Positions 1 to 18,136 are shown, numbered from the stretch's first letter. The stretch: DNA of 57,371 nucleotides from Defluviitaleaceae bacterium (GCA_009788085.1 WQSB01000002.1:1-57371), one strand, 5' to 3'. Numbers and translations are program-made. Notes: generated from the sequence alone by a model not told the origin.

Positions 1-1
1 G

Positions 2-1033
2 GAGCTGCCCGCCGCCCTCGACCCGGACGAATTCGACGAGGTCAACAAGGGCCATCACAGAGGAGTGCTGTCGTCGCTGCGGGACGATTACGGTAATCTT
101 ACAACCAAGCGAATCTGCCCGTTTTGCCACAACGATATCCCCCAAAGCGCGGGATTTGCACCCAGCACGATTATCTCCGTGGTGGGCGCGACCCAATCGG
201 GCAAATCGGTGTATCTCACCAGTTTGATTCACACGTTAAAAACCGTTACGCCCCGCAACTTTCCTATTTTCTGTACGCCCATCAGCAACGAAATGGGGCG
301 CAAATTCAAATTCGAATACGAGGACCCGCTAATCGAAAACGGAATGCTGCTTAATCCCACCCAAAAGGAAAAGCAGCAGGAGCCGTTTATTTTTACGTTT
401 TCGTTTTCAGACGACACCAAACCGGAAATTAATATCGCTTTCTTTGACGTGGCCGGTGAGGGTATGGTTGACACATCTTACATGGATATCTACGCCGCTC
501 ATATCCGCAACTCGTCGGGGATTCTTTTCTTGGTTGACCCGTTGCAGTTCCGTTCTGTAGGGCGCAAAATTTTATTAAAAAATAATTTGGATTACGAACT
601 GCGCTTCTCAGACGAGCCCACGGATGTTCTCAGCGGCCTGGTGGAGGATTACATTTACAAGCAGGGGGGCGGCGTTTCGGATATCCCAACGGCAGTTGTT
701 TTGACCAAAACGGATTTGCTGGAGGCCCTGCAAGCCGACGGTGAATATATCCACAAGGACAGTCATTTTTTTGCAAACTACACTCACAAGGGATTTTTTA
801 ATATGCTCGAATTTTACAATATCGACGGCGAAACAGACGAGTTCATCGGCGATGTTGACCCAAATTTTCGAAACGCTCTGAAGCGGCGTTTTTCAGACTT
901 GGGATTTTTTGCCGTTTCCGCGCTGGGAACGCAGCCCGACGGGCAACGAGTGGCATCCTTTACGCCCATTCGTGTGGATGAGCCGTTTTTGTGGCTGCTT
1001 TTCCGGCTGGGTTACATCGAAGGCCGTGATTGA
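2..1033 (+). CDS. P-loop GTPase (TRAFAC-type, DO-GTPase-like), 5' end cut by window edge
   Basis: The frame is open from nt 2, with no stop before the listed start at 65. A CPFC zinc-ribbon-like motif is followed by Walker A GATQSGKS, Walker B/switch II DVAGEG and [NT]KxD as TKTD. Confidence 0.7.
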   Translation, partial: ELPAALDPDEFDEVNKGHHRGVLSSLRDDYGNLTTKRICPFCHNDIPQSAGFAPSTIISVVGATQSGKSVYLTSLIHTLKTVTPRNFPIFCTPISNEMGRKFKFEYEDPLIENGMLLNPTQKEKQQEPFIFTFSFSDDTKPEINIAFFDVAGEGMVDTSYMDIYAAHIRNSSGILFLVDPLQFRSVGRKILLKNNLDYELRFSDEPTDVLSGLVEDYIYKQGGGVSDIPTAVVLTKTDLLEALQADGEYIHKDSHFFANYTHKGFFNMLEFYNIDGETDEFIGDVDPNFRNALKRRFSDLGFFAVSALGTQPDGQRVASFTPIRVDEPFLWLLFRLGYIEGRD

Positions 1034-2153
1034 GCGGCAGTTTTACACACGCGAACGGCGAGGGCTGTTCCGTTCTTCGGAGGGGTATGACAGCGTGGCA
1101 AGGTCTCCGGGTTTGACGGACGCTTTCATAAAGGAAAAAATTCATCCCTATTGCACGTATTCCTCCCCCGCACCAAGGGTACAAACCGTCGTTCATTATC
1201 CCTGCGGAAGAATGCTGCTTGGTCAGGCCGCCTATGTACCCGAGGATTTTACCGGACGGCGGTCTACTTTTTTTTCTCACAATTATGTAATCCCCCCGGC
1301 GATTGCCGGGCTGCTACTGGAGGACATGGCGGGGCTGCTGACAACCCGGTTTGAAACTTCCTATGATATTTCCCTTGATGGCGTGCTTGAGCCGCTGGAG
1401 TTTTTGCCGCGGGATACACACTTGTGCACCGGTTCACTCTTGCCGCAAGTGGAGGAAGGGATAATCTCCAAAATTGCGGAATGCGTTTGCGAGTCCGTAC
1501 AAGCCTCGAAAAAAACCTATGTTCTTGTACCCGATTCCACCGGCGATATGTTTGAATTCGTACGCGGGGTGCTGATTTCGTTATATCAGCGACTGCCGGA
1601 ATGGGTCAAACATCAGCTGGGCTTTTGCACCTTTGCCCGTGAGCCCGATAAAAGAAAGGGCATTCATTTAGTCTTTTTGGTACAACCTTTTTTACGCCCC
1701 ACAGATTCATGCTTTGCCGGGGATTTTATCATACATATAAGCAACGAGGATGAGAATAATAACCGGGACGTTACGGCCGTAAGCGGCGTTTTTGGAGCGT
1801 TTTTGGATTCCCGGATTCAGGCCTTTACAATCGGGCGTTTCTTTACGGAAATGGATTTCTGGCGTGTGCGACTGCCTAGTTACTGTGATATAATCTCAAA
1901 AACGGAGCGGAACTGGCTGGATAAAAAATTAGACAGCTTAACGCTCTCGCAGCTTAGGGAGATTCCGCAAAAATTTATCAAACGCGGGCTGGCCGACGAT
2001 GATTTTTCGATTTATGTGATGCTTTCCATTTTAAAAACAGCGGTTACCGATTTTAATACAGACCCCCGATATCTCTTGGGCAGTTACTTTTTAAGCCCCG
2101 CAAACTATGATAGAATTGCAAAAAATCTGCGCCGCCTTGAAGGAGCAATTTAA
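1026..2153 (+). CDS. GTPase-associated protein, GAP1-N2-like N-terminus (uncharacterised)
   Basis: GTG at 1026 overlaps the upstream stop (GTGATTGA). The N-terminus QFYTRERRGLFRSSEGYDSVARSPGL and the segment GRRSTFFSHNYVIPP resemble GAP1-type partners of double-GTPase systems, recognised from memory only. Confidence 0.5.
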   Translation: MIERQFYTRERRGLFRSSEGYDSVARSPGLTDAFIKEKIHPYCTYSSPAPRVQTVVHYPCGRMLLGQAAYVPEDFTGRRSTFFSHNYVIPPAIAGLLLEDMAGLLTTRFETSYDISLDGVLEPLEFLPRDTHLCTGSLLPQVEEGIISKIAECVCESVQASKKTYVLVPDSTGDMFEFVRGVLISLYQRLPEWVKHQLGFCTFAREPDKRKGIHLVFLVQPFLRPTDSCFAGDFIIHISNEDENNNRDVTAVSGVFGAFLDSRIQAFTIGRFFTEMDFWRVRLPSYCDIISKTERNWLDKKLDSLTLSQLREIPQKFIKRGLADDDFSIYVMLSILKTAVTDFNTDPRYLLGSYFLSPANYDRIAKNLRRLEGAI

Positions 2154-2154
2154 A

Positions 2155-3057
2155 ATGACCATCATACGAACAACCTTTGATTGGGCAGGGGCATTGTACA
2201 GCCGGTGGTTTGCCGATTGGTTGCATGTGCATTTTATAATACGCACCGTTTTGCTTCTTCTGTTAATGTGGCTGATAATTTTCCTTGGGGCGCAGTTGTT
2301 CAAATACGTTTTGCTGCCCCTTGTTTTAATGCTCTATTATCATGTTTTTTTCCGCGCTTGGAACTTTCTGTTTGTGGAAACCCCTCAGGAATGGCTTTAT
2401 TTGCGATATCATTCCAAGGACAAGCCCGACCACGCCCAGCTGTACTCTCGCCTGTGCGACAAGGTCAAAAGGAATCGTTTGATTTTGAAGCATACAAAAT
2501 TTGCCGGCATGATGATTCGCGCGAGACGCCCGGCCTCCGTTTTAATGTTCATTTGTCTTGTGGCGTCTACCCTTTGGATATCGGCCTTTGGCCTGCATCA
2601 GGAATATGCGGCCCCGGCTTTGGTCTTGATTGATAACACGGCCGACAGAGACATGCAGGATTCAGACGTGCCGGATTTGGACTTGCCTCCCGACGAGAGC
2701 AGCAATAACGAAAATGATTTGTACGATTATTATACTCCCGGGGAAGCTGAAGCAGAGCCCACCCCCGGAAGCCATGCAGTCTACGCGCCCGGCACAATAA
2801 ACCCCGCCGGGTGGCCGGCTGAGTCGAATATTAGGCTTTCCTTAACAGAGCAGGGAGCCCAAGGCGCAAGACTGCGCGACGGCCCCGGCATCGCCGGGAA
2901 TACGATTATAGAAATCTTATGGGACGACACATTAGTGACGTATCTTCATTCCTTTGTGCCGGACGTTTATGTAAACGGCTTATACTGGCTTCGCGTTCGC
3001 ACCCCCGGCGGCGCGGAGGGTTATATCAGCAGTCAGCTGGTGGAGGTCGCGGGCTAG
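2155..3057 (+). CDS. Multi-pass membrane protein with acidic linker and C-terminal SH3b-like domain
   Basis: ATG lies 1 nt after the upstream stop (TAAAATG). There are three hydrophobic segments. The C-terminus ARLRDGPGIAGNTIIEILWDD...YWLRVRTPGGAEGYISSQLVEV is typical of bacterial SH3. Confidence 0.6.
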   Translation: MTIIRTTFDWAGALYSRWFADWLHVHFIIRTVLLLLLMWLIIFLGAQLFKYVLLPLVLMLYYHVFFRAWNFLFVETPQEWLYLRYHSKDKPDHAQLYSRLCDKVKRNRLILKHTKFAGMMIRARRPASVLMFICLVASTLWISAFGLHQEYAAPALVLIDNTADRDMQDSDVPDLDLPPDESSNNENDLYDYYTPGEAEAEPTPGSHAVYAPGTINPAGWPAESNIRLSLTEQGAQGARLRDGPGIAGNTIIEILWDDTLVTYLHSFVPDVYVNGLYWLRVRTPGGAEGYISSQLVEVAG

Positions 3058-3071
3058 TGTCCCATCCGACG

Positions 3072-3293
3072 AAAAGCCGAAGGGTTTAGTTTGGAGCTCA
3101 TGAGGCGTGGGAATGCTCGCGCTAACGCTTGCCATGCGATGATTGAGACTGCTCGGGAAGTGCCTGTGCAGGTCTTGCTCCGCAAGCCCGGCGATGGCAC
3201 TAACCCTCGCCTGTCTCACTAATCGCACGACTTCGCTAGTCGCACTCGTCATTCCCACGCCTCATGAGCTCCAAACTAAGCCCTTCGGCTTTT
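3072..3293. repeat. Long palindromic element: 44-bp terminal inverted repeats around a 134-nt partly self-complementary core (MITE-like or structured RNA)
   Basis: Segment 3072-3115 is the reverse complement of 3250-3293 at 43/44 positions, and the one mismatch would be a G-U pair. Inner segments such as GCGATGATTGAGAC/GTCTCACTAATCGC and AGTGCC/GGCACT also pair. Confidence 0.8.
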
Positions 3294-3331
3294 TGCCGGA
3301 TAGGGTGAGGGTGGGCGGTAGGAGAGATAGT

Positions 3332-4852
3332 ATGTATATTGTAAAAGGGCATGAAATGCGCGAATTAGAAAACCGCGCCATGAAAAAATATGCTATTCCG
3401 TCTGTTTTGCTGATGGAAAATGCCGCGCTACAAGTGGTTAAGAACGGGCTTAGGCTGTTGAATGATAGGTCCGCCGGGAATGTAACAGTGGTTTGCGGCA
3501 GCGGCAACAACGGCGGAGACGGACTGGCATCGGCGCGGCTTTTTTATACAAAGGGGCACAATGTGCGGGTGGCGTACATTGGGGATATATCAAAAGCCCA
3601 AGGGGACGTTTTAATAAATTTGCGGATGGTTCAGCAAATGGGCATTCCCATCGAGGCCGACCCGGAAGCTTTGCCGGAGCTAGTAGCCGAATCCCATTTG
3701 GTGGTGGACGCCCTTCTGGGCATAGGCCTGTCGGGCCCGCTTCGCCCGAATTATGCCCGGGCCATAAACGCCATAAATACAGCGACGGTGCCGGTTTTAT
3801 CCGTTGACATCCCCTCTGGCGTGGACGCCGACACGGGAAAAGTCATGGATACCGCGGTTCACGCCCATACAACAGTAACCTTCGGACTGGCGAAAATCGG
3901 GCTGATGGCATATCCCGGCGCGGAATACGCCGGGCAGGTAATAATCGAAGATATTTCCCTTCCAGCGGAGGCGTTGAGCCCACCAGCGGGAGATCATTGG
4001 TTGCAAGCTTTGTGCCAGCCCGACATCGCGGCTTTGCTGCCGAAAAGGCCGGCCCGCTCCAACAAAGGCACCTTCGGTCGCATGTGCGTAATAGCAGGGT
4101 GCCGGGAAATGCCCGGGGCGGCAGTGCTGTGCTGCAAAGCCGCATACAAAGCGGGGGCGGGGTTGGTACACGCCTGCGTGGTTTGGGATGTTGCAAAAGT
4201 GATTCAGTCCTACGCTCACGAGGTCATTACAACAATTTTACCCGAAATTTTGCCCAATTCGGAACCCGACACCGAAGCCGTAGTCCCGCCGCAAGCCGAT
4301 GTAATCGCCATAGGGCCGGGCCTGGGGCGCAATCCCGAAAGCTTTGTTTTCGTGCGGAAAATAATGAACCAAGCCTCTGTACCACTGGTTATTGACGCGG
4401 ACGGCCTAATGGCCATTGCCGATGATATAACCGCCCTTAAATCCATAAAAGTGCCCTGCGTAATCACACCACACCCTGGGGAAATGGCCGCCCTAACCAA
4501 GCTTACGACCCCGGAGGTCACGGGCAATCTAATTGCCATCGCTCAAGAATTTGCCAAAACCCATGGCATAGTGACACTATTAAAAGACGCCCGCACGGTA
4601 ATTGCCTCACCGGACGGACGCACTTTTATAAATCTTACAGGAACACCGGCCCTTGCAAAGGCCGGAACCGGCGATGTCCTAACCGGCGTAATTGCCGCCT
4701 TAATCGCCCAGGGGCTGGCTGCTTTTGACGCGGCGGTGCTGGCTGCATATGTACACGGCTTTGCAGGCGAACTGGCCGCAAAGTCGCTTTCTGTTTATGG
4801 GGTAAATGCTAGCGATTTATTGGAATACCTGCCCTATGCTTTTATGCTGTAG
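3332..4852 (+). CDS. nnr: Bifunctional NAD(P)H-hydrate repair enzyme (epimerase + ADP-dependent dehydratase)
   Basis: The N-terminal YjeF_N-like segment reads MENAALQVV...VVCGSGNNGGDGL. The C-terminal carbohydrate-kinase domain reads GPGLG...TPHPGEMA...AKAGTGDVLTG. SD GGAGAG lies 5 nt upstream of ATG 3332. Confidence 0.9.
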   Translation: MYIVKGHEMRELENRAMKKYAIPSVLLMENAALQVVKNGLRLLNDRSAGNVTVVCGSGNNGGDGLASARLFYTKGHNVRVAYIGDISKAQGDVLINLRMVQQMGIPIEADPEALPELVAESHLVVDALLGIGLSGPLRPNYARAINAINTATVPVLSVDIPSGVDADTGKVMDTAVHAHTTVTFGLAKIGLMAYPGAEYAGQVIIEDISLPAEALSPPAGDHWLQALCQPDIAALLPKRPARSNKGTFGRMCVIAGCREMPGAAVLCCKAAYKAGAGLVHACVVWDVAKVIQSYAHEVITTILPEILPNSEPDTEAVVPPQADVIAIGPGLGRNPESFVFVRKIMNQASVPLVIDADGLMAIADDITALKSIKVPCVITPHPGEMAALTKLTTPEVTGNLIAIAQEFAKTHGIVTLLKDARTVIASPDGRTFINLTGTPALAKAGTGDVLTGVIAALIAQGLAAFDAAVLAAYVHGFAGELAAKSLSVYGVNASDLLEYLPYAFML

Positions 4853-5697
4853 GTATACGGAATACCCATCTGTTGCAGGCGTCCTATTCTTTCGTGTGTA
4901 TTTGGATGGGTTGAGTAAAGGGCTTTTAAAAAAGATTTCTGCGGGCTGTTTCTGCCAGTAGCATCTAACGCCTTGGCCAGCTGAACGCCATACCCTAGTT
5001 GAACGGCATAAGCATCAGCAGCATATTCATTTTCCCGCATCGACCATGATAGGAACAATATACAAAATTTTGTCCACAGCCAAATGATACCTCCAATCAC
5101 TATTCCTACAGCGGCTTTGACCCATGACCGGTTTCTGATTGCGGATATGACGGACCCTGTTGCTATAAGTACAGCAATCCCTCTCAAAATAAGGATAAAC
5201 ACAGTAATGAAAATATTGCCCCCTCCTATAAGCAGTTGTATTTCCGTATGACGATGTGCTAAATGTGCTATTTCATGTGATAGAAGCCCCAAGATTATTT
5301 CATCCGGCAGACGCATCAAACCTTCGGTAATGCAAATAGTCTTTCTGCCGATAGCATAGGCCTTAGCATCCGATGTGTATACTATTCTCAATTCAATCGT
5401 ATCAGCTAGGCCGGGCGTTTTCATTTTCGCCGTCCTATACACAGTTTCAAACAACGGTTCGATTCGTTTTTGCATATCAATCCTTTTTATCTTTTTTGCC
5501 CCAGCAAAAAAGCATAGCACCCATTCTCCAAACGGCGAAAAGGCCGCAAAAATTGACGCGATGTAAATTGCAAATACCACAGCCAAAACTTGAATGCCGC
5601 CACCTGAGAAAAATATTAGGACGGTCATTATATTAAGAAGGAAGAAAACGATTACACCTATGCCGGATTTTTTGAAGAGGTTTTTTGCTATATTCAT
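4834..5697 (-). CDS. M48-family (HtpX-like) integral-membrane zinc metalloprotease
   Basis: The protein has the HEIAHLAHRH (HExxH) motif, several TM segments and a C-terminal STHPNTHERI. Its ATG overlaps the upstream stop (ATGA). Confidence 0.8.
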   Translation of the reverse strand: MNIAKNLFKKSGIGVIVFFLLNIMTVLIFFSGGGIQVLAVVFAIYIASIFAAFSPFGEWVLCFFAGAKKIKRIDMQKRIEPLFETVYRTAKMKTPGLADTIELRIVYTSDAKAYAIGRKTICITEGLMRLPDEIILGLLSHEIAHLAHRHTEIQLLIGGGNIFITVFILILRGIAVLIATGSVISAIRNRSWVKAAVGIVIGGIIWLWTKFCILFLSWSMRENEYAADAYAVQLGYGVQLAKALDATGRNSPQKSFLKALYSTHPNTHERIGRLQQMGIPYTYSIKA

Positions 5698-6386
5698 TTG
5701 TCTTCACCAAATTCTGCCACAAAGTTTATGTATGTTATTGCGTCTCTTGCCATTTCCCGCGTTGCCCCTTCGCTAATGAGCCTGTCAATTAAATTATGCT
5801 TTGTAAAAATATCATTGCCCGCACGGCTTTCTATTAATAAAGCAAGGGCATTAAGCTCAAAAAGCGAAACACTCAACCACCGAATAATACCCCTGCACTC
5901 ATAATCATTTCGCAACAAATCAGACGCAAGTGCCTTAAAGGTACGCGAGCATAAAAACGCTTGGGGATAATCACGATGCATGGTTTGAAGCATACATATA
6001 ATTTTTTCAGAATGTCCATTGTCTACAACGAAAGTATCTTCATCCGGTTCGGGCTGATGGCCCTGTTTAATACAGGTGCTGTCCTCTACATATTTGGGTT
6101 GTCCGCTTCGCCTCTGTAGTAGCCTCATTGCTTCCAACATAGGCCCCGTATCCGGATAACCAAGCTCCGCCGCTTTTTCAAGCCAGTATACGGCACTCGC
6201 ATAATCATCTTCTTTAAGGTAACAATGACTTAGAATAGAATAATAATCGCCCATAGCACATTGGGCGTGAATATCGCCATTATCAGCCATTTGGTTCAGC
6301 TCATTAATGGAATATCTACGCCCTGTGCTAACATCGCAACCAAAAAGCTCCTTATTGTTATTGCTCATCTTTATTTCGATTTTCAT
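5694..6386 (-). CDS. Sel1-like repeat protein with uncharacterised C-terminal domain
   Basis: The N-terminus NGDIHAQCAMGDYY...ASAVYWLEKAAELGYPD is Sel1/TPR-like. The remaining ~130 aa were not recognised. The start is uncertain because there is no clear SD. Confidence 0.55.
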   Translation of the reverse strand: MKIEIKMSNNNKELFGCDVSTGRRYSINELNQMADNGDIHAQCAMGDYYSILSHCYLKEDDYASAVYWLEKAAELGYPDTGPMLEAMRLLQRRSGQPKYVEDSTCIKQGHQPEPDEDTFVVDNGHSEKIICMLQTMHRDYPQAFLCSRTFKALASDLLRNDYECRGIIRWLSVSLFELNALALLIESRAGNDIFTKHNLIDRLISEGATREMARDAITYINFVAEFGEDK

Positions 6387-6398
6387 AAAATATAAATA

Positions 6399-7808
6399 TT
6401 AAAGCTTTCCACGCAAGGTGCTTTTTAGCTTTTCAAACTCTTCCTTCAATTCGGGATTGTTTTCAATTTTCCGCCTTAAATTTGCTTCTTCTACTGATGC
6501 GGAATTATATTTTGATGATACACTATTGCGCCTGTTACTTTGGACGTCGGTTGTATTAATAAGATAGTACCCTGGAACAGCACATGCACCTGAAATGAGA
6601 AGAGAGATTACAATGACCCCACTTCCTCCCGAGAGGGCACCGATAAATGAGAGTAACATAAGGACTGCGATACCTAAGAGCATGAATCCAATGATACGCT
6701 TAATAGTTCTTAGCGCGGGATATTGCTCTTTACTGGCTTCGGCAGCTTTCTCATTAACAATCAGCACTTCTTCTTTTCGTTCTTCATCTTTTTTTCGTTC
6801 CTCATCTTTTTTGCGCTCTTCATCTTTACGGCGTTGTGCATCTTGTGAGAGTTGTTCTTCGCTTGGAAATGCATCTCGTATCAAGTGACTAATGTCCGCC
6901 CCATTCTTTTTCCACCGAGAACCGAGAGCTTTTATTATTTCATCTACAATGCGCGGCTCGGTTGCTTTTGGGCCCTTGGAAATTACCATCCCTAAGAAAG
7001 AGCTAAATTTCTCCTTTGCAGTTGCCAACTCTTGCTCGTGCAACTTCTCCATTGCCGTAATATGCATCGCGGGAAGGTGCGGGGGCGGATTTTTTTTGAA
7101 CAGGGCATGAGCTTTCTCTGCATATCCGATTCGCTTGGCAAGGGCAATAGCGACATTCACATCCGATTTGAAATAAGAATCTACTTGGCCACGGTCATCA
7201 AGACGCGAGTGAGCTTGATATGCAAGACTAATCCCGTTGTACTGCATGTATTCCAACGGGTTTTCAGATTCACTTTCCGCACGATGAACAGCTTCTGTTA
7301 TTAAACGAAAACCTTCTGCGGGGTTAGAAAACTTCACAAGTCCCGGCAATTTACTTATGTGCATGGTATCGGGTGAACCACAATATATTGTGCCAAGTTC
7401 AGCCATCGCTATAATATTTTTGTGGTCATAGACCAGCTTCTTGAAGCATTCAATAACGGTTGCCTCATTATCGCCCTCAATGCGGTTAGCGTACAAGTCC
7501 ATCAGTCCGAAGCGTGCGTGGGAATCCCCATTTTCCATAGCCTTTACTAACCAACGCACCGCTTCTTTAGGATTGTCCTCTATACATACAGGAAAATCAG
7601 AATCATAAAAAGCAGCAAACTCACGCTGGGCAACGCAATGACTTTGTTTTGCCGCTTTCTCCAGCCAGTCAAATGCTTTCTTTGGGTCTTGGTCAAAACC
7701 ATCTTCTCCATACCTGTATGCCCAGCCCAATTCAAATTGGCTTTCCACGTCGTTCTGTTCAGCACGGGTAATTAACTCTTGTTTTTGAGTTTCACTTAAC
7801 ATACGCAC
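6399..7808 (-). CDS. Sel1-like repeat protein with charged KDEER repeat and C-terminal double TM anchor
   Basis: Repeated Sel1 signatures are present (ESQFELGWAYRYG...KKAFDWLEKAAKQ; AVRWLVKAMENGD). These are followed by RRKDEERKKDEERKKDEERKEE and then two hydrophobic helices. SD GGGAGG precedes the ATG. Confidence 0.7.
   Translation of the reverse strand: MRMLSETQKQELITRAEQNDVESQFELGWAYRYGEDGFDQDPKKAFDWLEKAAKQSHCVAQREFAAFYDSDFPVCIEDNPKEAVRWLVKAMENGDSHARFGLMDLYANRIEGDNEATVIECFKKLVYDHKNIIAMAELGTIYCGSPDTMHISKLPGLVKFSNPAEGFRLITEAVHRAESESENPLEYMQYNGISLAYQAHSRLDDRGQVDSYFKSDVNVAIALAKRIGYAEKAHALFKKNPPPHLPAMHITAMEKLHEQELATAKEKFSSFLGMVISKGPKATEPRIVDEIIKALGSRWKKNGADISHLIRDAFPSEEQLSQDAQRRKDEERKKDEERKKDEERKEEVLIVNEKAAEASKEQYPALRTIKRIIGFMLLGIAVLMLLSFIGALSGGSGVIVISLLISGACAVPGYYLINTTDVQSNRRNSVSSKYNSASVEEANLRRKIENNPELKEEFEKLKSTLRGKL
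6781..6834. repeat. 3 x 18-bp in-frame tandem repeat (encodes RKKDEE units) inside CDS 6399-7808
   Basis: The units are TCTTCATCTTTTTTTCGT, TCCTCATCTTTTTTGCGC and TCTTCATCTTTACGGCGT on the + strand. Confidence 0.8.
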
Positions 7809-7830
7809 CTCCCTGTACGGTTATAAAATT

Positions 7831-8214
7831 TTATAGCGCGTCCCGAATAAGCTGACGAACCTCTTTGATGTGGTCAAAGCAGTTGTTACACCTTTTAATC
7901 ATCATAGCGATGCGTTGTTCTTGAGAGTTCTGCTTCTGCAACAATTGTAGAGCATCAAGCCATTGTTCAGCTTTTTGGGTGAGAGCAGGAAGGAATTCAC
8001 CTTCTTGTTCCCGGCGATAATTTTCCATGCTTGCACCTTTTCGCCCCCGACTATAATCGTCTATAGCATTCAGACGGTCTATGGATTTCACTCTGTCTAT
8101 CCCTTCTTTGTACTTACTGATACTAAAGGGCTGTCCGTCAGTAAAAAACAGATGCTCCATATTGGCTATTTCACCTTCAAGAACATTCAGTCTTTCGTTT
8201 ACAGCACTATCCAT
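7831..8214 (-). CDS. Hypothetical helical protein (127 aa)
   Basis: The ORF has SD GGGAGGA 8 nt upstream. It is packed 22 nt from the next gene. I recognised no family. Confidence 0.6.
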   Translation of the reverse strand: MDSAVNERLNVLEGEIANMEHLFFTDGQPFSISKYKEGIDRVKSIDRLNAIDDYSRGRKGASMENYRREQEGEFLPALTQKAEQWLDALQLLQKQNSQEQRIAMMIKRCNNCFDHIKEVRQLIRDAL

Positions 8215-8252
8215 TTATACATCCTCCCACAAAATATAATTTGATGCCTCGC

Positions 8253-8459
8253 TTAAAGCTCGTCTATAACTTTTTTCAACAAAGCAACTGTATGTTCATT
8301 CGCCTTGTATATTGCCATATTAACAAGACTTGCTGGTTCCATGTCTTTGCCAAAAGATTTAACCCAATTCATCCTGACTTCAGACATTTCATTTTGAACT
8401 CCAGACATAAGTTCATCTGCGAGTTTATCAATTGCATCATGTATTTTGTTTTTGTTCAT
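8253..8459 (-). CDS. Small hypothetical protein (68 aa)
   Basis: The internal ATG (MNKNKIHD...) has SD GAAGGGGG 8 nt upstream. The listed start at 8477 lacks an SD. Confidence 0.55.
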   Translation of the reverse strand: MNKNKIHDAIDKLADELMSGVQNEMSEVRMNWVKSFGKDMEPASLVNMAIYKANEHTVALLKKVIDEL

Positions 8460-8764
8460 GTTGGACACCCCCTTCATTTTTTAAATGCTGATGCACTATA
8501 ACATAGACGAGTGTAGCTCTACATTTCAAAACCATTTACGCTACCAGAATATGACCTATTGTCCGCGTTGAACTCACCAACCTTACTGCCGCCAGAAGTG
8601 TAAACGAAAAAGTTTCACTTAAACATAAGAACCTCCACGTATTTCCAGCCACCGTCGCCCTACAAAGCTTTCTATGTAGGACAATTCGTTCGACATGGTA
8701 AGTAAATCGCTGTTTTTTGTTGCTTTTAAACTAAGAACCAGCAAACTCACAGGCTGCCGCTCGT

Positions 8765-8986
8765 TTAATCCATTATTTCTGACCACTTTCGCGCACAACC
8801 CGAACAACCATCATTCTTAACTAGCCTCATCACCATAGCTAATGCCATTTGTTGCCCTTGTGGGATACCACCTGTTTCACGCAAACTTTTTTTAACCAAA
8901 TCAAGGGCTGCTCCGACATTGCCATTTGCTAAACCTCTACATGGGTTACATAAAGTGAAAGCGCGAATTTCGTCAAAAAAGTCCAT
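8765..8986 (-). CDS. Small Cys4 protein (73 aa; CNPC...CSGC)
   Basis: ATG at 8986 (MDFFDEI...) is preceded by AAGGAG 8 nt upstream. That SD sits directly after the stop of the 52-aa ORF. Confidence 0.6.
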   Translation of the reverse strand: MDFFDEIRAFTLCNPCRGLANGNVGAALDLVKKSLRETGGIPQGQQMALAMVMRLVKNDGCSGCARKWSEIMD

Positions 8987-8999
8987 AATTTCATCTCCT

Positions 9000-9158
9000 T
9001 TACAGCCTTGGGCTGTTTGATTTCTTTGCTTCTTCGTAATTGGGGCATTTTTGCCAGTTGCTGCTTGATTCACAGTTGTTTTGCCGTCTGTAATCGTCTT
9101 GCTTTGTGTTGTAAAGCTTACATTCGTGGCCGAGTTCATTGTAATATGGACATTTCAT
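9000..9158 (-). CDS. Small Cys-rich protein (52 aa), absent from the ORF track
   Basis: The sequence is MKCPYYNELGHECKLYNTKQDDYRRQNNCESSSNWQKCPNYEEAKKSNSPRL. SD AAGGTGA lies 5 nt upstream of the ATG. Its stop abuts the SD of the next gene. Confidence 0.55.
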   Translation of the reverse strand: MKCPYYNELGHECKLYNTKQDDYRRQNNCESSSNWQKCPNYEEAKKSNSPRL

Positions 9159-9225
9159 TAATTTCACCTTGCTTGCTCAATATAACAAATCCCTCCAATT
9201 ATGCTACAGCTGGATGTTTACTTAA

Positions 9226-9552
9226 TTAACGTATGTTGTGTAGTCTCTGCAACAGTTCCGTCTTTTTTGTATACTCCTCAGCCGCATGTATCATTTTTTC
9301 CAATTGCGCTTTTACTCCATTTTGTTCATTTATTAAATTATTGAAATTAAGGCTTGAACGCTTCTCTTGCGGAGTATCCCTGTACTTTTGTTCGATAGTA
9401 GATAGAATATCTTCCATCTGTTTCAAATGAGCCTTAACCTCTTGAACTACGTCCCGTTCCGTGCCCACATCTATATACTTTTTTGCAAGCCGTATGTTCT
9501 CATTAAGGATGTCCCTTATACCCTTTAAATCGTGGTTTTCTTGTTTATCCAT
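9226..9552 (-). CDS. Hypothetical coiled-coil protein (about 108 aa; start uncertain, ORF open to 9639)
   Basis: The ORF is charged and helical. ATG at 9552 (MDKQEN...) has GGAG 9 nt upstream, while the listed TTG at 9639 has no SD. Confidence 0.55.
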   Translation of the reverse strand: MDKQENHDLKGIRDILNENIRLAKKYIDVGTERDVVQEVKAHLKQMEDILSTIEQKYRDTPQEKRSSLNFNNLINEQNGVKAQLEKMIHAAEEYTKKTELLQRLHNIR

Positions 9553-9837
9553 TCTAATCCACTCCATTTCTTTTTTTATTTTTTCCTCAATTTTCAAGTT
9601 GGCACTTTCAAAGCCTTTGACGAGGATTCTTTTTAGCAATTTTGCTCTTTTCTGAAAGTATTAACTGTAATGTTTTTAAGACTTAGTGTAGTGCCTCTCA
9701 CCACCATTATCAGACGTCACTATTAACTCACTCCCGGCAATCTCATATTCCTCCATAATAATACATTTTATTTCATCCCTTTGGATGTCTTTGCATCGAA
9801 CAAAATATTAGATTTGTTCATGTTATTTTTGTCGATT

Positions 9838-9882
9838 TCATTTGTTAAACTGCCGCTGTAATCGCGGTGGCGGGTTGCTCAT
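9838..9882 (-). CDS. Possible 14-codon leader ORF (MSNPPPRLQRQFNK)
   Basis: Strong SD GAGGGGAGG lies 5 nt upstream of the ATG, immediately after IR-L. There is no other support. Confidence 0.25.
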   Translation of the reverse strand: MSNPPPRLQRQFNK

Positions 9883-9896
9883 GTGCACCTCCCCTC

Positions 9897-9924
9897 ATGC
9901 AACAAAATATCTAGAAAGTTGCAT
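9897..9924. repeat. Left inverted repeat (IR-L) of candidate invertible switch
   Basis: ATGCAACAAAATATCTAGAAAGTTGCAT is complementary at 25/28 positions to IR-R at 10039-10066. Confidence 0.75.
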
Positions 9925-9949
9925 CCTGTAAAATTCTACAATTCCGGAC

Positions 9950-9982
9950 AAAAAAAGAGGCGAAGCACATTCGTCTTCGCCT
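9950..9982 (-). terminator. Intrinsic terminator inside the invertible segment, functional only for leftward (minus-strand) transcription in this orientation
   Basis: The minus strand reads AGGCGAAG-ACGAATGTG-CTTCGCCT followed by C TTTTTTT. On the + strand the same hairpin is followed by TGGAGC. Confidence 0.7.
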
Positions 9983-10038
9983 TGGAGCTATGTCGTCATA
10001 GGGGAATTGCCAAGTATTTTCGCAGCTTTGCGACATCA

Positions 10039-10066
10039 ATGCAACTTTCTAGATAAAATGTTGCAT
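10039..10066. repeat. Right inverted repeat (IR-R) of candidate invertible switch
   Basis: ATGCAACTTTCTAGATAAAATGTTGCAT is the partner of IR-L. The two repeats flank a 114-bp segment. Confidence 0.75.
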
Positions 10067-10076
10067 CAACATACTT

Positions 10077-10105
10077 ATTATATTAGGAGGATTTTCCAAT
10101 GTCAA
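10077..10105 (-). promoter_or_regulatory. Consensus sigma-A-type promoter firing leftward into IR-R
   Basis: The minus strand reads TTGACA (10105-10100), a 17-nt spacer, then TATAAT (10082-10077). It overlaps the SD and start of the recombinase on the opposite strand. Confidence 0.65.
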
Positions 10106-10665
10106 CTACCCAACCCATAAGAAATTTAGACCACGTCCGTGCCCTTGCAAATTACTATATGGACAAAGGTGAACTTCGAAATTACAGACTTATCGTATTA
10201 AGCCTCCACACAGCGTTGCGGGTGTCCGACTTGCTTTCCCTGCGCTGGTCGGACGTGTATGACTTCAAATTAAACCGCCCCTGCAAAGAGTTCACCCTAA
10301 CAGAGCAAAAAACCGGCAAAAGCAAAACCGTCGCAATCAATCACCATGCGGCAAAAGCATTAAAAAAAGGTGCAGATACAGCCGCACCCTACCATTTTCT
10401 ATTTGCCAATGCGCATTCCGGCAAAGCCTTAGTCCGCGCCCAAGCCTACCGCATAATTCGCAATGCTGGGGAAGCCCTGGAACTCCCTGGGCGCATATCC
10501 TGTCATTCGCTCCGAAAAACCTTTGGATACCATGCATGGAAAAAGGGAATTTCCCCAGCCGTGATTATGGAAATATACAACCATTCTAGCCTAAGCCAAA
10601 CCCGCCGTTACCTGGGCATAAATCAAGATGACCTCAACACCGTTTACATGAGTATGGCGTTTTAA
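10099..10665 (+). CDS. Small tyrosine recombinase (catalytic domain only, FimB/FimE-sized, 188 aa)
   Basis: Catalytic signatures are present: ALRVSDL (Arg), CHSLRKTF (HxxR), HAW and RRYLG (Tyr). SD AGGAGG lies 8 nt upstream. Confidence 0.85.
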   Translation: MSTTQPIRNLDHVRALANYYMDKGELRNYRLIVLSLHTALRVSDLLSLRWSDVYDFKLNRPCKEFTLTEQKTGKSKTVAINHHAAKALKKGADTAAPYHFLFANAHSGKALVRAQAYRIIRNAGEALELPGRISCHSLRKTFGYHAWKKGISPAVIMEIYNHSSLSQTRRYLGINQDDLNTVYMSMAF

Positions 10666-10668
10666 AGC

Positions 10669-10695
10669 AAAAAAAACCGCTAACGCGGTTTTTTG
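10669..10695. terminator. Bidirectional intrinsic terminator between recombinase and atpC
   Basis: The sequence is AAAAAAAACCGCTAACGCGGTTTTTTG, a stem flanked by an A-run and a T-run. Confidence 0.7.
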
Positions 10696-10703
10696 ATTGA
10701 TTT

Positions 10704-11129
10704 TCATGCTTTGCTCTTACCAGTCAATTCCAGCTGAATCTTACAACGCCTTGAATCATTCCGATAAGTGTCTTTTTCAAGTAAGTTTTCAGTTTCGTTT
10801 ATCTTGCGCTCGATTTCTTTTAAGTCTTCGCTGACCTTTTTAACGTCTATGTCCTCCGGCCATTGGGCAGAATCGGACAAAACGGTCACGATGTTGTTGC
10901 TGACATGTGCCACTCCGCCCATTACCGCCATGTGGGACTCTGTGTCGCCGTCGAAAACGCGCAACAGTCCTAAATCCAGCACCATGGAGCAGGGCACCCG
11001 GCCGGGCAAAATGCCCATCTCGCCCGTTGTGCAGCGCAGAATTACCATGTCAACATCACGCTTATACTTATAAGGGCTTTTGTCTGTGGCTTGTGTCGGT
11101 GCGATTACGCGCAGTTCGAGCTTACTCAT
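10704..11129 (-). CDS. atpC: F1 ATP synthase epsilon subunit
   Basis: It is last in the atp operon, and LRVIAP...GEMGILPGRVP...GGVAHVSNNIVTVL is typical of epsilon. Confidence 0.9.
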   Translation of the reverse strand: MSKLELRVIAPTQATDKSPYKYKRDVDMVILRCTTGEMGILPGRVPCSMVLDLGLLRVFDGDTESHMAVMGGVAHVSNNIVTVLSDSAQWPEDIDVKKVSEDLKEIERKINETENLLEKDTYRNDSRRCKIQLELTGKSKA

Positions 11130-11272
11130 GCAAACTATCCTTTCACGACCGCCCAGCAGTCATGCCATAGACAATTCCGTTGAGAATGGGCTCAGCCATC
11201 GCGCAAAGCACCGCCGACGCAGTCGCGGCACGCGCTCGGCTTCACCTTTCTCAACTGAAATCGCTATATAGC

Positions 11273-12721
<1,449 letters not shown>

Positions 12722-12767
12722 CTACGCCCCCAAGCCCCCTCGCTACGCAATGGGTGGAAGTCTATAG

Positions 12768-13757
12768 CTATTTCAGCGCGTTCGCGCCACTGACGATTTC
12801 GGTGATTTCCTGAGTAATAATGCTTTGACGCTGTCTGTTAAACATGAGTGTCAGCTTTTCAATGATGTCTCCGGCGTTTTTGGTGGCCGAGTCCATGCTG
12901 GTCATGCGGGCGGCCTGCTCACACAGTGCCGACGATGCCAAAGCGGCATGAATAAACATACACAGATACCATGGCACTACCGCCCTTAAAACCTCGTCCA
13001 GCCCCGGCTCATACTCGATTTCCTGTTGCAAAGAGGACGCGGATTTTGCCTTGGGTCGTGGGAAGAAGCCTAAATCCTCCCATGCTTCGCCGTCGTGTAA
13101 GTCCGTACCGACAACGCGGCGAAGATATGCCGGGTCGATGGGCAGAACCTTTCTGATAATCGGCTCAAGGTTGAGCACTGTACGAAACTGCGTATAAACC
13201 AAGTAAATTTCGTCTATTTTCCAAGTTTTGTCTTCGTTTCGGGTTTCGTACATGGATACAAGACTGTCTGCGACAACCTTTGCGTCAGCGAAAGTCGGGG
13301 ACTCCGCAGGCATGGGCACTTCGAATAAATTGGCATTGCGCCGTTTGAAATAATCGCGCCCCTTAGTCCCCAGCGGGACAATGATTGGCTTGATGTTATT
13401 CGCTTTGGCATGTTTTACCAGTTCCTTACATACAGCGGAGTTGTATCCGCCGCATAAACCGCGGTTACTGGTTATTAGCACATATGCCGCGGTCTTTTGC
13501 GGATTTTCCGCCGTCGTCCCGTCTACATGGGGTACGATAAAGGGGCGGTCGAAGTTTTCTTCCATTGCAAAAGGGTCTACGTCGCTAACCGTGTTGTACA
13601 CCATATCAAAGGTGGCCTGAACGGGCTTGCCTACCGCGGCCAGCGCGGCACGAGCCCTTTGTAGCTTAGAGGTAGCAACAAGATTCATTGCCTTGGTGAT
13701 TTGCGATATATTTTTTACAGTCAAACGCCTGCGTTTAATCGCCTTCATTGAGGGCAT
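12768..13757 (-). CDS. atpG: F1 ATP synthase gamma subunit
   Basis: The N-terminus is MPSMKAIKRRRLTVKNISQITKAMNLVATSKL and the C-terminus is RQSIITQEITEIVSGA. Confidence 0.95.
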   Translation of the reverse strand: MPSMKAIKRRRLTVKNISQITKAMNLVATSKLQRARAALAAVGKPVQATFDMVYNTVSDVDPFAMEENFDRPFIVPHVDGTTAENPQKTAAYVLITSNRGLCGGYNSAVCKELVKHAKANNIKPIIVPLGTKGRDYFKRRNANLFEVPMPAESPTFADAKVVADSLVSMYETRNEDKTWKIDEIYLVYTQFRTVLNLEPIIRKVLPIDPAYLRRVVGTDLHDGEAWEDLGFFPRPKAKSASSLQQEIEYEPGLDEVLRAVVPWYLCMFIHAALASSALCEQAARMTSMDSATKNAGDIIEKLTLMFNRQRQSIITQEITEIVSGANALK

Positions 13758-13768
13758 ACGCTACCTCC

Positions 13769-15319
13769 TTACTTTATGGTTGCTTTAAATGCGGCGATGG
13801 CCTTTTCCAAATCTTCGCCCAGTTCCTTGCTGATGGCTTTTTCGGTACGGATTTGAGAAAGAATGCTATCGTGGTTTTCTATGAAGAATTTCAGGAAAGC
13901 TCGCTCCGTGGCTTGAATATCCTCCACGGAAACGTCTGCGAAATGCTTCTTGGTGACGGCATAGAATAATAATACCTGCTGCTCAACGGGCAACGGATTA
14001 TTCTGGGGCTGTTTGAGAATTTCAACGATACGACGTCCTTGGTCGAGACGTTCGAGGGTGTCCTTTGTTAAATCCGAGCCAAATTGCGCAAAGGCTTCCA
14101 GCTCACGGAACTGCGCAAGCTCCAAACGAAGGGGGCCGGCCAAAGTTTTCATGGCTTTGATTTGCGCCGCACCACCAACACGGGATACGGATAAGCCGGG
14201 GTTAATCGCCGGTCGGATACCCTTGTTGAAGGATTCGGACTCAAGGAAAATCTGGCCGTCGGTAATTGAGATAACATTCGTGGGAATGTACGCGGAAATA
14301 TCGCCGGCTTGGGTTTCAATGATGGGCAAGGCGGTAAGCGTTCCGCCGCCGCGCTCTTTTGTCAGACAAGCGGCTCTTTCGAGCAAACGTGAATGCAAGT
14401 AGAAAACGTCACCGGGATAGGCTTCGCGGCCGGGCGGGCGGCGAAGCAGAAGGCTAAGCGCGCGGTACGCAACGGCGTGTTTGGAAAGGTCGTCGTAGAT
14501 TACAAGCACGTCTCTGCCGTTTTCCTCCATCCACTCTTCACCGATGGCACATCCCGCGTATGGCGCGATGTATTGCATGGGCGCAGTATCGGAAGCGTTC
14601 GCGCTGACAATACATGTATAATCCATCGCTCCGGCGTCCTCAAGAGTACGCGCAACCCGCGCAACTGTAGACGCCTTTTGGCCGATAGCAACATATACAC
14701 AGTATACCCGCGTATCCTTTTCACCCGGTTGGGGCGCGGGTATCTTCTTATTAATAAGAGCCTGATTGATAATCGTGTCGATGGCAATTGCCGTTTTTCC
14801 CGTTTGGCGGTCACCGATAATCAGTTCGCGCTGGCCGCGCCCAATGGGAATCATGGCGTCAATAGCCTTGATACCCGTTTGCAAAGGCACGTTTACCTCT
14901 TGGCGTTCGATAACACCGGGGGCAATGCGCTCGATTACACGCTTTTTGCTGCTGTTTACCGGGCCCTTGTTGTCCACGGGTTTTCCGGTGGGGTCAACGA
15001 CGCGCCCAAGAAGAGCGTCACCCACGGGAACTTCCGCGATACGCCCGGTACGTTTGACAGGGTCTCCTTCGCTGACATGGTCGTCCGCGCCAAGGAGTAC
15101 CGCACCGATGCTGTCCTCATCAAGGTTTAGGGCTATGCCGAACAATTCGCCGGGGAATTCCAAAAGCTCGCCGCTCATGGCGTTGTTTAATCCGTAAACA
15201 CGGGCGATACCATCGCCGACGTGAATAACGCTCCCCGCTTCGGCCACATCCATTTTAGAGGAATATGCTTTTATTTGTTGCTTTATAATGGAGCTTACTT
15301 CATCTGGCCTAAGAATCAT
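13769..15319 (-). CDS. atpA: F1 ATP synthase alpha subunit
   Basis: The N-terminus is [25 protein letters not shown] (Walker A) and typical alpha motifs are present. Confidence 0.95.
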
Positions 15320-15333
15320 TCTCTCGTTCCCCT

Positions 15334-15406
15334 TTAACATGCTCCGGATTCAAAATTGCAACGGAGCGTTTTAACATGCTCCGGATTTAAATTGTATCGG
15401 AGCGTT
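15334..15406. repeat. Tandem ~37-nt duplication at the atpH/atpA junction
   Basis: TTAACATGCTCCGGATTCAAAATTGCAACGGAGCGTT is followed by TTAACATGCTCCGGATTTAAATTGTATCGGAGCGTT. The second copy holds the last codons and stop of atpH. Confidence 0.8.
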
Positions 15407-15926
15407 TAATTGATTCTCTCATGTCTTTCAACATGGTTCTTACCGTGCGGTCAAGAAAATAGCCTTCAACCTGAATGCTTATGCCCGCAATTACGGACGG
15501 GTCAACAATTACCGTAATATCAACCATTTTGCCCAGCTTCCTTGTGAGAGTTGCGGTAAGCTGCGCGGCCTGCCCGTCGGTGAGGGGCACGGCGGAAACA
15601 ACACGCGCCGTGGTTTGATTGCTGTGGGCTTTTATCATTTCCGACAGCTTTATGAGGGCAGGCAAAAGATAAGCTTCACGGTTTTTGGCGATGACCAATT
15701 TCATAAAACCAAGGAGGTCTTGATGCACAGATTCCCCAAAAGCCTTTGACAAAAAGTCGTTCTTTTCGCCGGCTGATATAAGGGGATGGGTGAGGATGCG
15801 AAGGGCATCTTCATCTTTTAATACGGAGCACAAAAATAACGATTGCTCCAGATATTCGTTTAGCAAGCCGCCTTCTTCGGACATTTCGAACAATGCAGTC
15901 GCGTAACGGATGCCTAAGTCAGACAA
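15387..15926 (-). CDS. atpH: F1 ATP synthase delta subunit
   Basis: The call rests on its position between atpF and atpA and its OSCP-like sequence (YATALFE...). Confidence 0.9.
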   Translation of the reverse strand: MSDLGIRYATALFEMSEEGGLLNEYLEQSLFLCSVLKDEDALRILTHPLISAGEKNDFLSKAFGESVHQDLLGFMKLVIAKNREAYLLPALIKLSEMIKAHSNQTTARVVSAVPLTDGQAAQLTATLTRKLGKMVDITVIVDPSVIAGISIQVEGYFLDRTVRTMLKDMRESIKRSDTI

Positions 15927-15946
15927 GATAAAGACCTCCTAAAAAG

Positions 15947-16531
15947 TTACGCAGTAACAGTATCCGCCCTAAAAGCCGTGGTAGCCTCAAGCTCCTCCAT
16001 GGCCTCGGCAAATAATTTGTCATGCGCGTTTTTATCAATGCTGGTTGAAATTAAACGAGCCGCCATATCTGTTGAAATGTCAACAATAGCCTCAACCACC
16101 GCGCTTTTGATTTGCTCGCGCTCTGTGGCGATATCGCGTGCGGCGCGTTCTTTTACGTCTTGGGCTTCGGATTTGGCCTCGTCCAAGATTTGAGTGCGCC
16201 GTTCACCGGCCTGTTTGCGGGCCTCATCTAAAATAGAAACACGCTCCTGCTCAATTTCCGATACCTTTTGCTCATACTTAGCCTTTAATTGCGCGGCAGA
16301 CAGCTTGCTGTCCTCGGCACTGGAAAGGTCGCCCTCAATGCGGTCCGCACGGGCCTTAAGCACTCTTCTAACCGGATTATACAGCAAATAGGTCAAAAAT
16401 CCGGCAACAACTATAAAGCTGAACAGGTTGGGAATCATACCGATGAAGGTATCAGCGTCAAGGGCAAACAGCGACCTGTACCATTCCACGACGTTCCCTA
16501 AAAACAACATTTGAGGATTCAACTGAATCAT
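15947..16531 (-). CDS. atpF: Fo ATP synthase subunit b
   Basis: A single N-terminal TM segment is followed by a long charged helix, and the gene is in the expected operon position. Confidence 0.9.
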   Translation of the reverse strand: MIQLNPQMLFLGNVVEWYRSLFALDADTFIGMIPNLFSFIVVAGFLTYLLYNPVRRVLKARADRIEGDLSSAEDSKLSAAQLKAKYEQKVSEIEQERVSILDEARKQAGERRTQILDEAKSEAQDVKERAARDIATEREQIKSAVVEAIVDISTDMAARLISTSIDKNAHDKLFAEAMEELEATTAFRADTVTA

Positions 16532-16540
16532 CCCCTCGCT

Positions 16541-16804: not shown

Positions 16805-16856
16805 TTTGATTCCTCCTAAAAAATTATTTATCTATATAAACCTGCCGCGTCGCGCC

Positions 16857-17549: not shown

Positions 17550-17570
17550 ACCAATCCCACCTTACTGATA

Positions 17571-18092: not shown

Positions 18093-18136
18093 TGTATAAG
18101 TTCCTCCTTCACCGTGCTGGCAGTTATGCTAAGACT

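Follow-up and report, generated by a model that had tools for sequence, protein, structure and literature searches.

We describe an AT-rich island in a stretch of DNA from a Defluviitaleaceae bacterium (GCA_009788085.1, WQSB01000002.1:1-57371; the whole stretch of 57,371 nucleotides (nt) is called the window here). A small operon in this island lies to the left of a DNA switch with its own tyrosine recombinase, and codes for small Cys-motif proteins, two Sel1 proteins and a membrane-bound protease of family M48. As judged from its sequence, the island is best read as a horizontally acquired, phase-variable module for conflict or proteolysis close to the membrane. The whole explanation, in which a terminator switch controls a conserved gene module and the M48 protease, and the output is a conflict-type proteolysis at the membrane, is in our view evenly poised between right and wrong.

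Anatomy and predicted function of the switch

Two inverted repeats of 28 nt, which prove to be real, are located at 9897-9924 (left) and 10039-10066 (right) and flank a core of 114 nt (9925-10038). The right repeat reads ATGCAAC-N14-GTTGCAT, the left one is complementary to it in 25 of 28 positions, and the right repeat ends 32 nt ahead of the ATG of the recombinase gene. The pattern of this repeat family has exactly two matches in the window, compared with 0.02 expected by chance. The recombinase (10099-10665, plus strand) has 188 amino acids (aa) and consists of the catalytic domain only, as in the invertase type. It matches Pfam Phage_integrase (9e-26) and the NCBIfam model for tyrosine-type DNA invertases (5e-13), and the catalytic residues R...HxxR...H...Y are visible in its sequence. 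With a repeat pair and an adjacent intact tyrosine recombinase, the locus is an inverton by its predicted anatomy.

A promoter that agrees with the sigma-70 consensus in 12 of 12 positions (TTGACA-17-TATAAT, 10077..10105, minus strand) lies outside the inverted repeats, overlaps the start codon and the Shine-Dalgarno sequence of the recombinase gene and reads leftward into the core. The core contains an intrinsic terminator (9949..9982, minus strand) with the stem GGCGAAG/CTTCGCC followed by a U-run. On folding, the minus-strand RNA forms a hairpin with a U-tract; the reversed orientation keeps the hairpin and loses the U-run. In the sequenced orientation, the terminator is predicted to act on leftward transcripts alone. 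Two hallmarks of a cwpV-type switch, an outside promoter and a terminator for one orientation, are both present as predictions.

We infer that the operon is controlled by inversion of this terminator. The constitutive, fixed promoter would transcribe leftward through the 114-nt core; in the sequenced orientation the transcript would meet the terminator and the operon would be OFF or low. With the core inverted, the hairpin would lack its U-tract and transcription would read through into the operon (ON). At the same time, a good -35 in the core would pair with a -10-like TAAAAT in the fixed outer half of the right repeat, which faces the recombinase gene. With this pairing, ON cells would make more recombinase, and the switch would tend to return to OFF. 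Such a feedback would account for the terminator-blocking state seen in every assembly. The mechanism is more specific than the switch originally predicted, in that the promoter is placed outside the invertible segment and the terminator within it.

The -10-like positions in the outer halves of the repeats are the sole mismatches between the two repeats and should, because of this position, remain with their flanks after recombination. Moreover, they are asymmetric: in the window and in six relatives the recombinase side has TAAAAT and the cargo side TATTTT, TAAATT or TATTGT.

Relatives of the recombinase were collected by a scan of termite-gut metagenomes (n = 396), and about 55 with enough upstream sequence were inspected. 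Most of these have a pair of 26-30-nt repeats of the pattern ATG[T/C]AAC-N14-GTT[A/G]CAT about 30 nt from the ATG, with cores mostly of 105-135 nt. All 12 of the closest relatives (63-80% identity, L112 among them) have the external promoter, with 11-12 of 12 matches, and a terminator at the same place and in the same promoter-facing orientation. Inversion itself can be seen in the family: L122 and L123, two contigs with the same locus from a more distant relative, have 99% collinear flanks and carry a 112-nt core in opposite orientations, from which it follows that this recombinase family inverts DNA in nature. Together with the repeat pair beside the recombinase, this supports the original view that the module is controlled by a switch.

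A second promoter-like sequence makes a different mode of control conceivable. It is weak (TTTACA-17-TATTTT, 9904..9932, minus strand), with its -35 in the core and its -10 in the left repeat. The switch could be a classic invertible promoter that is ON in the sequenced orientation by virtue of this cargo-proximal -35 and the -10 of the left repeat; the terminator would then merely insulate this weak promoter from the external one, whose short transcript would serve as antisense or occlusion control of the recombinase. A score of 9 of 12, a -35-like hexamer at the same position in most close relatives (TTTACA or TTGCAA, semi-conserved at the cargo-proximal end of the core) and the lack of the external promoter in more distant recombinase relatives argue for this, and one orientation throughout the assemblies is expected if ON is the common state. 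However, in the window and six of the relatives the -10 on the cargo side is a degraded copy and it is the recombinase side that keeps TAAAAT, a promoter with 12 of 12 matches and fixed spacing that is directed at the cargo would be purposeless, and after inversion the external promoter would read unhindered into the operon. An invertible promoter therefore appears unlikely to us, and terminator inversion is the preferred mechanism.

Two further features were seen in the leader. A degenerate third copy of the recombination site, CATCGAACAAAATATTAGATTTGTTCATG at 9793-9822, points the same way as the left repeat and is located about 100 nt deeper in the leader; a relic or a secondary site is conceivable. 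An ORF (open reading frame) of 14 codons, p14 (9838-9882, minus strand; MSNPPPRLQRQFNK), has a strong Shine-Dalgarno sequence and a Pro-Pro-Pro run. It lacks conservation in related switches; it may encode a stalling leader peptide or be an ORF by chance.

Comparison with known switches

In the cwpV switch (Cdi1) of Clostridioides difficile the promoter is upstream of the switch and the OFF transcript contains a terminator (Emerson et al. 2009, PMC2784873). Both switches have a promoter upstream and outside of the invertible segment, an intrinsic terminator in the transcript of one orientation only and a tyrosine recombinase for inversion, and in both the published genome is in the OFF state, which in the window is a prediction. 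They differ in that the recombinase of the window is encoded beside the switch, with its start overlapping the promoter, that the terminator is inside the core and not at the junction of repeat and core, and that the core also holds a -35 with a possible feedback on the recombinase. Furthermore, the cargo here is a cytoplasmic/membrane operon and not a cell-wall protein, and the switch is known from sequence alone. The fimS element of E. coli with FimB/FimE resembles the window in its small, catalytic-domain-only recombinases (which the NCBIfam invertase match also indicates), in its short invertible element and in a possible orientation-dependent expression of the recombinase. However, fimS itself carries the promoter, its recombinases are located upstream and codirectional with the cargo, and the cargo is a fimbrial operon. 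Altogether, the switch of the window is cwpV-like by prediction, but self-contained and probably self-biasing.

Close relatives of the cassette in four loci (L069, L072, L073, L080) have quite different cargo to the left of their switches: secreted or cell-wall proteins with N-terminal stalk motifs like those of copper amine oxidases or an SH3-like C-terminus, as read by eye, and multi-pass membrane proteins. With such different cargo behind closely related cassettes, the invertase cassette looks like a portable regulatory unit.

The island and its genes

The island is an AT-rich, insert-like block of 5.8 kb. Its GC content is 0.41, compared with 0.52 to the left and 0.50 to the right, and it is the 5-kb stretch with the lowest GC content of the 57-kb window, which elsewhere ranges from 0.454 to 0.52; the sharp shift in composition that had been claimed is evident. 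Low-GC contigs from termite gut with homologous modules have a GC content of 0.34-0.41, which matches the island and not the host (about 0.50), and this supports horizontal acquisition. Four further public assemblies contain the window sequence with 100% identity over as much as 15.7 kb. The host, of termite-gut origin, has genes for sporulation sigma factors as well as an atp operon, which marks it as a Firmicute. A prophage, plasmid or integrative and conjugative element (ICE) remnant was considered and rejected: the DNA and the M48 protein had no match in the phage and plasmid collections, M48, Sel467 and p52 had none among viral contigs, and flanking direct repeats of the attachment-site type were not found around the island. 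The original prediction would have failed on a match to a known prophage or ICE remnant, and no prophage or plasmid match emerged.

All described genes are on the minus strand and run leftward from the switch, as seen in the ORF listing and in the sequence, and every gene of the original list is present. The most switch-proximal gene after p14 codes for a helical protein of 137 aa with a TTG start (p137, 9226-9639), or of 108 aa if the ATG at 9552 is used. Next come a 52-aa mini-protein with four Cys (p52, 9000-9158), a 73-aa protein with two CxxC motifs (p73, 8765-8986), a helical ORF of 68 aa with a Shine-Dalgarno sequence (p68, 8253-8459) and a 127-aa protein with four predicted helices and a conserved CxxCxxH motif (p127, 7831-8214). 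The first Sel1 protein, Sel467 (6399-7802, ATG at 7802, 467 aa), has a Sel1/helical N-terminal region, a KDEER linker and a hydrophobic C-terminal anchor; the KDEER repeat is present in three copies with 18-nt spacing at 6769-6840. The second, Sel224 (5694-6368, ATG at 6368, 224 aa), has a Sel1-like N-terminal region and an all-alpha C-terminal domain of about 100 aa, designated domain X. It is translationally coupled to the M48 protease (4834-5697), an HtpX-like zinc metalloprotease with four hydrophobic segments. The two Sel1 proteins had been given as 469 and 230 aa; both exist, and the greater lengths result from a GTG start and an upstream ATG, respectively.

As described before, Sel224 overlaps M48 by ATGA and the genes are closely spaced (13-67 nt). 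The claim that most Shine-Dalgarno sequences are strong is correct for p14, p73, p127 and Sel467; those of p52, p68 and M48 are moderate, and none was seen for Sel224 or for the TTG start of the 137-aa ORF. The supposed gap of 287 nt between p73 and p68 has to be revised: by the coordinates used here it measures 305 nt, and it is occupied by a gene relic (8522-8611). At its left end the island overlaps nnr convergently by 19 nt, from stop codon to stop codon (4834-4852). At the other end the recombinase gene is followed by atpC and its terminator, so that the island does carry its own recombinase on the atp side. A search of 4500-11000 with Rfam gave nothing credible.

A conserved module of small proteins and Sel1 proteins

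Homologues of window genes do co-occur elsewhere, as the original prediction requires. In a termite-gut locus (L148/L149/L150) five of them are found in the same order; proteins of 51, 73, 79 and 122 aa are followed, further on, by a 516-aa protein (Sel516) and then by P0134, a relative of Sel224. p52 is 84% identical to the 51-aa protein, with all four Cys kept, p73 is 53% identical to its counterpart of 73 aa, with both CxxC motifs kept, and p127 is 41-43% identical to the 122-aa protein, with CxxCxxH kept. Sel467 is 44% identical to Sel516 over aa 2-356 (355 residues), and Sel516 repeats its layout of Sel1/helical region, charged linker and C-terminal membrane anchor. The genes of p52 and the 51-aa protein differ at 10, 3 and 19 first, second and third codon positions, and 17 of 43 identical residues use different codons. 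The bias of the differences towards third positions, the changes of codons and the kept Cys motifs indicate that the small ORFs with L148 counterparts are genes under purifying selection. This bears on the doubt, raised at the outset, that the small ORFs are not translated: the substitutions in p52, p73 and p127 follow a coding pattern.

The relic in the gap consists of the last 30 codons of a gene for a family of 79-81 aa (p80). It is 67-73% identical to the C-terminus of this family (E 1e-12), has a stop codon ahead and is without a start codon. The p80 family is part of the L148 module, and L009 and L147, the loci of the two closest M48 relatives, also encode it, directly downstream of M48. 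Through the relic, the module and M48 genes are historically linked.

The small proteins had no match in Pfam, PADLOC, NCBIfam or PHROGs, and sequence searches with p52, p73 and p80 against the PDB were empty. For p127, single-sequence AlphaFold 2 modelling gave a generic bundle of helices (pLDDT, the predicted local distance difference test, 70) without a fold match. Sel467 and p127 had been taken for orphans, which was rejected once homologues with 41-44% identity were found in L148. A word-index protein search had missed these homologues in the same collection; since repeat-rich queries saturate its candidate list and short ones share too few words, its negative results were not used to assign orphan status. 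A WXG100 identity of the helical small proteins was rejected as well (no Pfam match, no WxG motif seen), and so was a cluster for a ribosomally synthesised and post-translationally modified peptide (no modifying enzyme or transporter in the island).

Sel467 matches Pfam Sel1 above the gathering score (2.5e-12; 47.2 bits, with a gathering score of 30.7). Sel224 reaches 22.2 bits, below this gathering score; solved Sel1 proteins match it at 4e-7, and its N-terminal region models as helical hairpins. The double transmembrane (TM) anchor that had been proposed for Sel467 stands as a hydrophobic C-terminal anchor; two TM helices are a reading of it, as hydropathy analysis gave one strong peak (residues 370-388).

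When Sel224 was used for an exhaustive HMMER search, P0134 of L148 was the single true full-length relative. Domain X (residues ~117-223) is more widespread. It has no Pfam model and was found in at least 17 other protein clusters, in an N-terminal position and fused mostly to Sel1 repeats, otherwise to FHA, DUF6273, SRA, zinc ribbons or membrane segments. This promiscuity of fusion suggests an adaptor domain. AlphaFold predicted domain X with a pLDDT of 95-98 from an alignment of 18 sequences, and a Foldseek search with the Sel224 model, a two-domain model that may lower the sensitivity, had no PDB match at E <3. The C-terminal domain that the original prediction called unknown is, accordingly, an unannotated, confidently folded domain with no fold match in the PDB. 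A homotypic pairing of domain X within the operon is not supported, as X occurs once per locus.

From these comparisons, the conserved module comprises p52, p73, p80 (a relic here), p127, the TM-anchored Sel467 and the adaptor-like Sel224, and it is joined in the window to the M48 protease.

The L148 locus (1-19026) encodes several other proteins: a Ser/Thr kinase of more than 983 aa with TPRs, a beta-propeller protein, Cys-rich ORFs of 52, 61 and 67 aa, a transglutaminase-like protein, a DUF6273 protein, a TraG/VirD4-like ATPase and a WYL regulator. A relative of this ATPase matches PADLOC mad8 at 2e-17. L148 is probably a larger version of the same system or its setting in a defence island.

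The M48 protease and its relatives

The protease matches Pfam Peptidase_M48 (3.2e-20, 73 bits with a cut-off of 20.3) and has the motif HEIAH, a downstream Glu ligand and the four hydrophobic segments of HtpX, as expected for the HExxH membrane protease that had been predicted. H141, E142, H145, E224 and D228 are invariant across 43 members of the clade. It is not HtpX proper, since its best score against the NCBIfam HtpX equivalogs is 46 bits, compared with a cut-off of 341. Relatives with 42-67% identity are common in metagenome-assembled genomes (MAGs) of gut Clostridia, and the relatives of both the recombinase and M48 come overwhelmingly from termite-gut metagenomes and MAGs. The clade was not found in the phage, plasmid and viral-contig collections.

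We looked at about 50 genome loci and seven metagenome contexts of M48 relatives. Most of them have M48 as their final gene on the same strand, and the upstream genes vary. In about 20 loci there are genes for WXG100, a zinc-finger membrane protein, E2, JAB, ThiF/E1 and an FtsK/SpoIIIE ATPase of 1430-1770 aa; many of them continue with WXG100-headed toxins and small immunity-like genes and end with M48. The E1, E2 and JAB proteins of the M48-relative loci match models of the cyclic-oligonucleotide-based antiphage signalling system (CBASS) type. About 12 loci have toxin cassettes and M48 beside a relaxase and are identical across many species, which assigns them to a mobile element. About eight loci have genes for vWA, TerD, zinc-ribbon, transglutaminase-like and TraG-like ATPase proteins. 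One row (L017) reads vWA, PP2C, kinase-Sel1, Sel1, M48, and the locus of the closest M48 relative (L009, 67%) has JAB, E1, an NPCBM-domain protein, two Sel1 proteins, M48 and p80. Sel1 proteins are encoded upstream of M48 in six distinct loci (L009, L015, L017, L018, L023, L062). From these contexts, M48 appears to behave as a shared terminal component of membrane-proximal, conflict-type operons.

The operon with WXG100, E1, E2, JAB and FtsK was seen about 10 kb upstream of M48 in L015, L016, L027-L042, L060, L145 and L146. Its membrane protein has a B-box/zinc ribbon, its E2 is CBASS-like, its ATPase is sometimes fused to AAA+, and an Endonuclease_NS_2 toxin occurs in L012 and L145. It combines ubiquitin-like conjugation with type-VII-like secretion, a hybrid for which no description was found. 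The M48 matches that tblastn gave in L045-L056 cannot be told apart (42% identity, same E-value); they have the same 55-aa ORF adjoining, a divergent relaxase and a small membrane protein, in Butyricicoccus, Eisenbergiella, Negativibacillus, Ruminococcoides and other gut Firmicutes. This pattern points to a widely shared mobilisable element.

How does the protease compare with known systems? It shares HExxH, the downstream Glu ligand and the four hydrophobic segments with HtpX and is distantly similar to Ste24. The pairing of an M48 protease with a TPR-like domain is the design of BepA; the partnership with TPR-like repeats is alike in the window, but its Sel1 partners are separate proteins. 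Different from HtpX, BepA and Ste24, the M48 clade of the window is accessory and partly located on mobile elements. Relatives of M48 close operons with CBASS-type E1/E2/JAB, which recalls Cap2/Cap3-type CBASS and Bil-type operons, whereas Pfam revealed no E1, E2 or JAB gene in the island; a gene for a ubiquitin-like protein was not found there either, nor a Pfam match to WXG100 or FtsK/SpoIIIE. The row in L017 resembles the vWA-PP2C-kinase triads of the TerY-P type, and it had no match to a PADLOC model, TerY-P included; the window is without an NTPase, vWA or kinase.

Proposed function of the island

In the function that we propose, the anchored Sel467 would be a scaffold that, with Sel224 as adaptor, brings the Cys-rich small proteins, or their targets, to M48. 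The small proteins with Cys motifs probably bind metal, and they would serve as metal-binding partners or as substrates. As the island proteins have no signal peptide, the assembly is placed on the cytoplasmic face of the membrane. The output would be a costly, phase-varied function of the conflict type, a defence against invaders or against the weapons of competitors by proteolysis close to the membrane. A conflict-type role is suggested by the company that the M48 clade and the module keep and by phase variation of a probably costly function. It is the weakest step of the explanation and is guessed from the context, which includes the DO-GTPase/GAP1-N2 genes next door and the WYL, transglutaminase-like and TraG-like ATPase genes in L148. 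We tentatively suggest that p52, p73, p80, p127, the Sel1 scaffold and the Sel1-plus-X protein constitute an unrecognised membrane conflict system of gut Firmicutes with M48 as output, which a self-biasing invertible-terminator switch with its own invertase would keep mostly silent; we regard this as possible, but doubtful.

The original prediction did not recognise the gene combination as a described system, and this has not changed: the negative look-ups in PADLOC, NCBIfam, PHROGs, phages, plasmids, viral contigs and the literature agree with it. Across nnr, at window 1-3057 (plus strand), there is a GTPase-centric conflict system of the type of Kaur et al. 2020. It comprises DO-GTPase2, which is cut by the window start, GAP1-N2/GAP1-M at ~1095-2153 and a membrane protein of 300 aa at 2155-3057; the FNIII-like gene of the system is just past the window, in L001. 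The island has in common with the systems of Kaur et al. 2020 this DO-GTPase/GAP1-N2 neighbour and the adaptor-like fusions of the C-terminal domain of Sel224, but there is no second copy of domain X in the locus.

Several observations weigh against the explanation. The switch of the window has a single orientation, with 100% identity, in the window and four distinct metagenome contigs, and an exact search of metagenome contigs for the inverted junction gave 0 matches. The blocking orientation is likewise the only one among the 12 close relatives, so that the terminator flip rests on logic and not on an observed ON allele. The weak promoter downstream of the terminator could express the operon in the present orientation. 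As to the cargo, none of nine proteins had a match in PADLOC 2.0 at E up to 0.1. For p137 and p68 no homologue was found and L148 has no counterpart; they are supported as ORFs, p68 also by a Shine-Dalgarno sequence. With p80 as a pseudogene the island is losing parts and may be decaying as a unit. Finally, the module of L148 has no M48, and the majority of M48 loci have no module; M48 is therefore neither specific to nor required by the module, and a functional coupling of the two here can only be presumed.

Other roles of the cargo are conceivable. It may be a unit for quality control of membrane proteins or regulated proteolysis in the manner of HtpX, BepA or Ste24, with Sel1 adaptors, that serves in envelope remodelling. 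M48 is like HtpX in sequence and topology and has TPR-like partners in the manner of BepA, its clade trails operons that are rich in membrane machines, and the cargos of related switches are surface proteins. On the other hand, the clade is patchy and at least partly borne by mobile elements, the partner genes of the module differ widely, the island is foreign by composition, and housekeeping quality control is seldom phase-varied. We grade this as a serious rival, if an improbable one.

The p80 relic, already mentioned, could also mean that a larger system, of the L148 or L009 type, is decaying here and that its remnant has ceased to function as a whole. Partners known from the relatives (kinase, ATPase, transglutaminase-like and E1/JAB) are missing, and p137 and p68 are without homologues. 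However, seven ORFs are intact, mostly with good ribosome-binding sites and tight spacing, the catalytic residues of M48 and the switch elements are intact, and the comparison with L148 revealed purifying selection; we consider a remnant clearly unlikely.

Least probable of all is a peptide or toxin-immunity set, in which p52 and/or p73 would be processed or neutralised by M48 and the Sel1 proteins would be immunity factors or chaperones. It would fit the very high conservation of p52 for a Cys-rich product of 52 aa and the M48 genes that trail toxin-immunity cassettes elsewhere, and type VI systems include Sel1-like immunity proteins. But leader and signal peptides are absent from the small proteins, the island does not encode a transporter or modifying enzyme, and L148 retains p52 and p73 without M48. 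A membrane-proximal conflict or proteolysis module under phase variation is preferred over such a set, which is highly improbable.

If the explanation is true, terminator inversion is not a curiosity of C. difficile but the way in which a subfamily of self-contained invertase cassettes (13 loci here) is built; this subfamily sits within a recombinase family of about 400 relatives from termite-gut metagenomes. Tools that consider invertible promoters only would then mis-call the ON and OFF states of such cassettes. The cargo establishes a small set of conserved genes, three of them for mini-proteins with Cys motifs. Its interest lies, besides the generality of terminator inversion, in domain X as a new, confidently folded, adaptor-like domain and in the M48 clade, whose links to operons for ubiquitin-like conjugation, type-VII-like secretion and vWA/kinase proteins may offer a handle on the membrane proteases of conflict systems.

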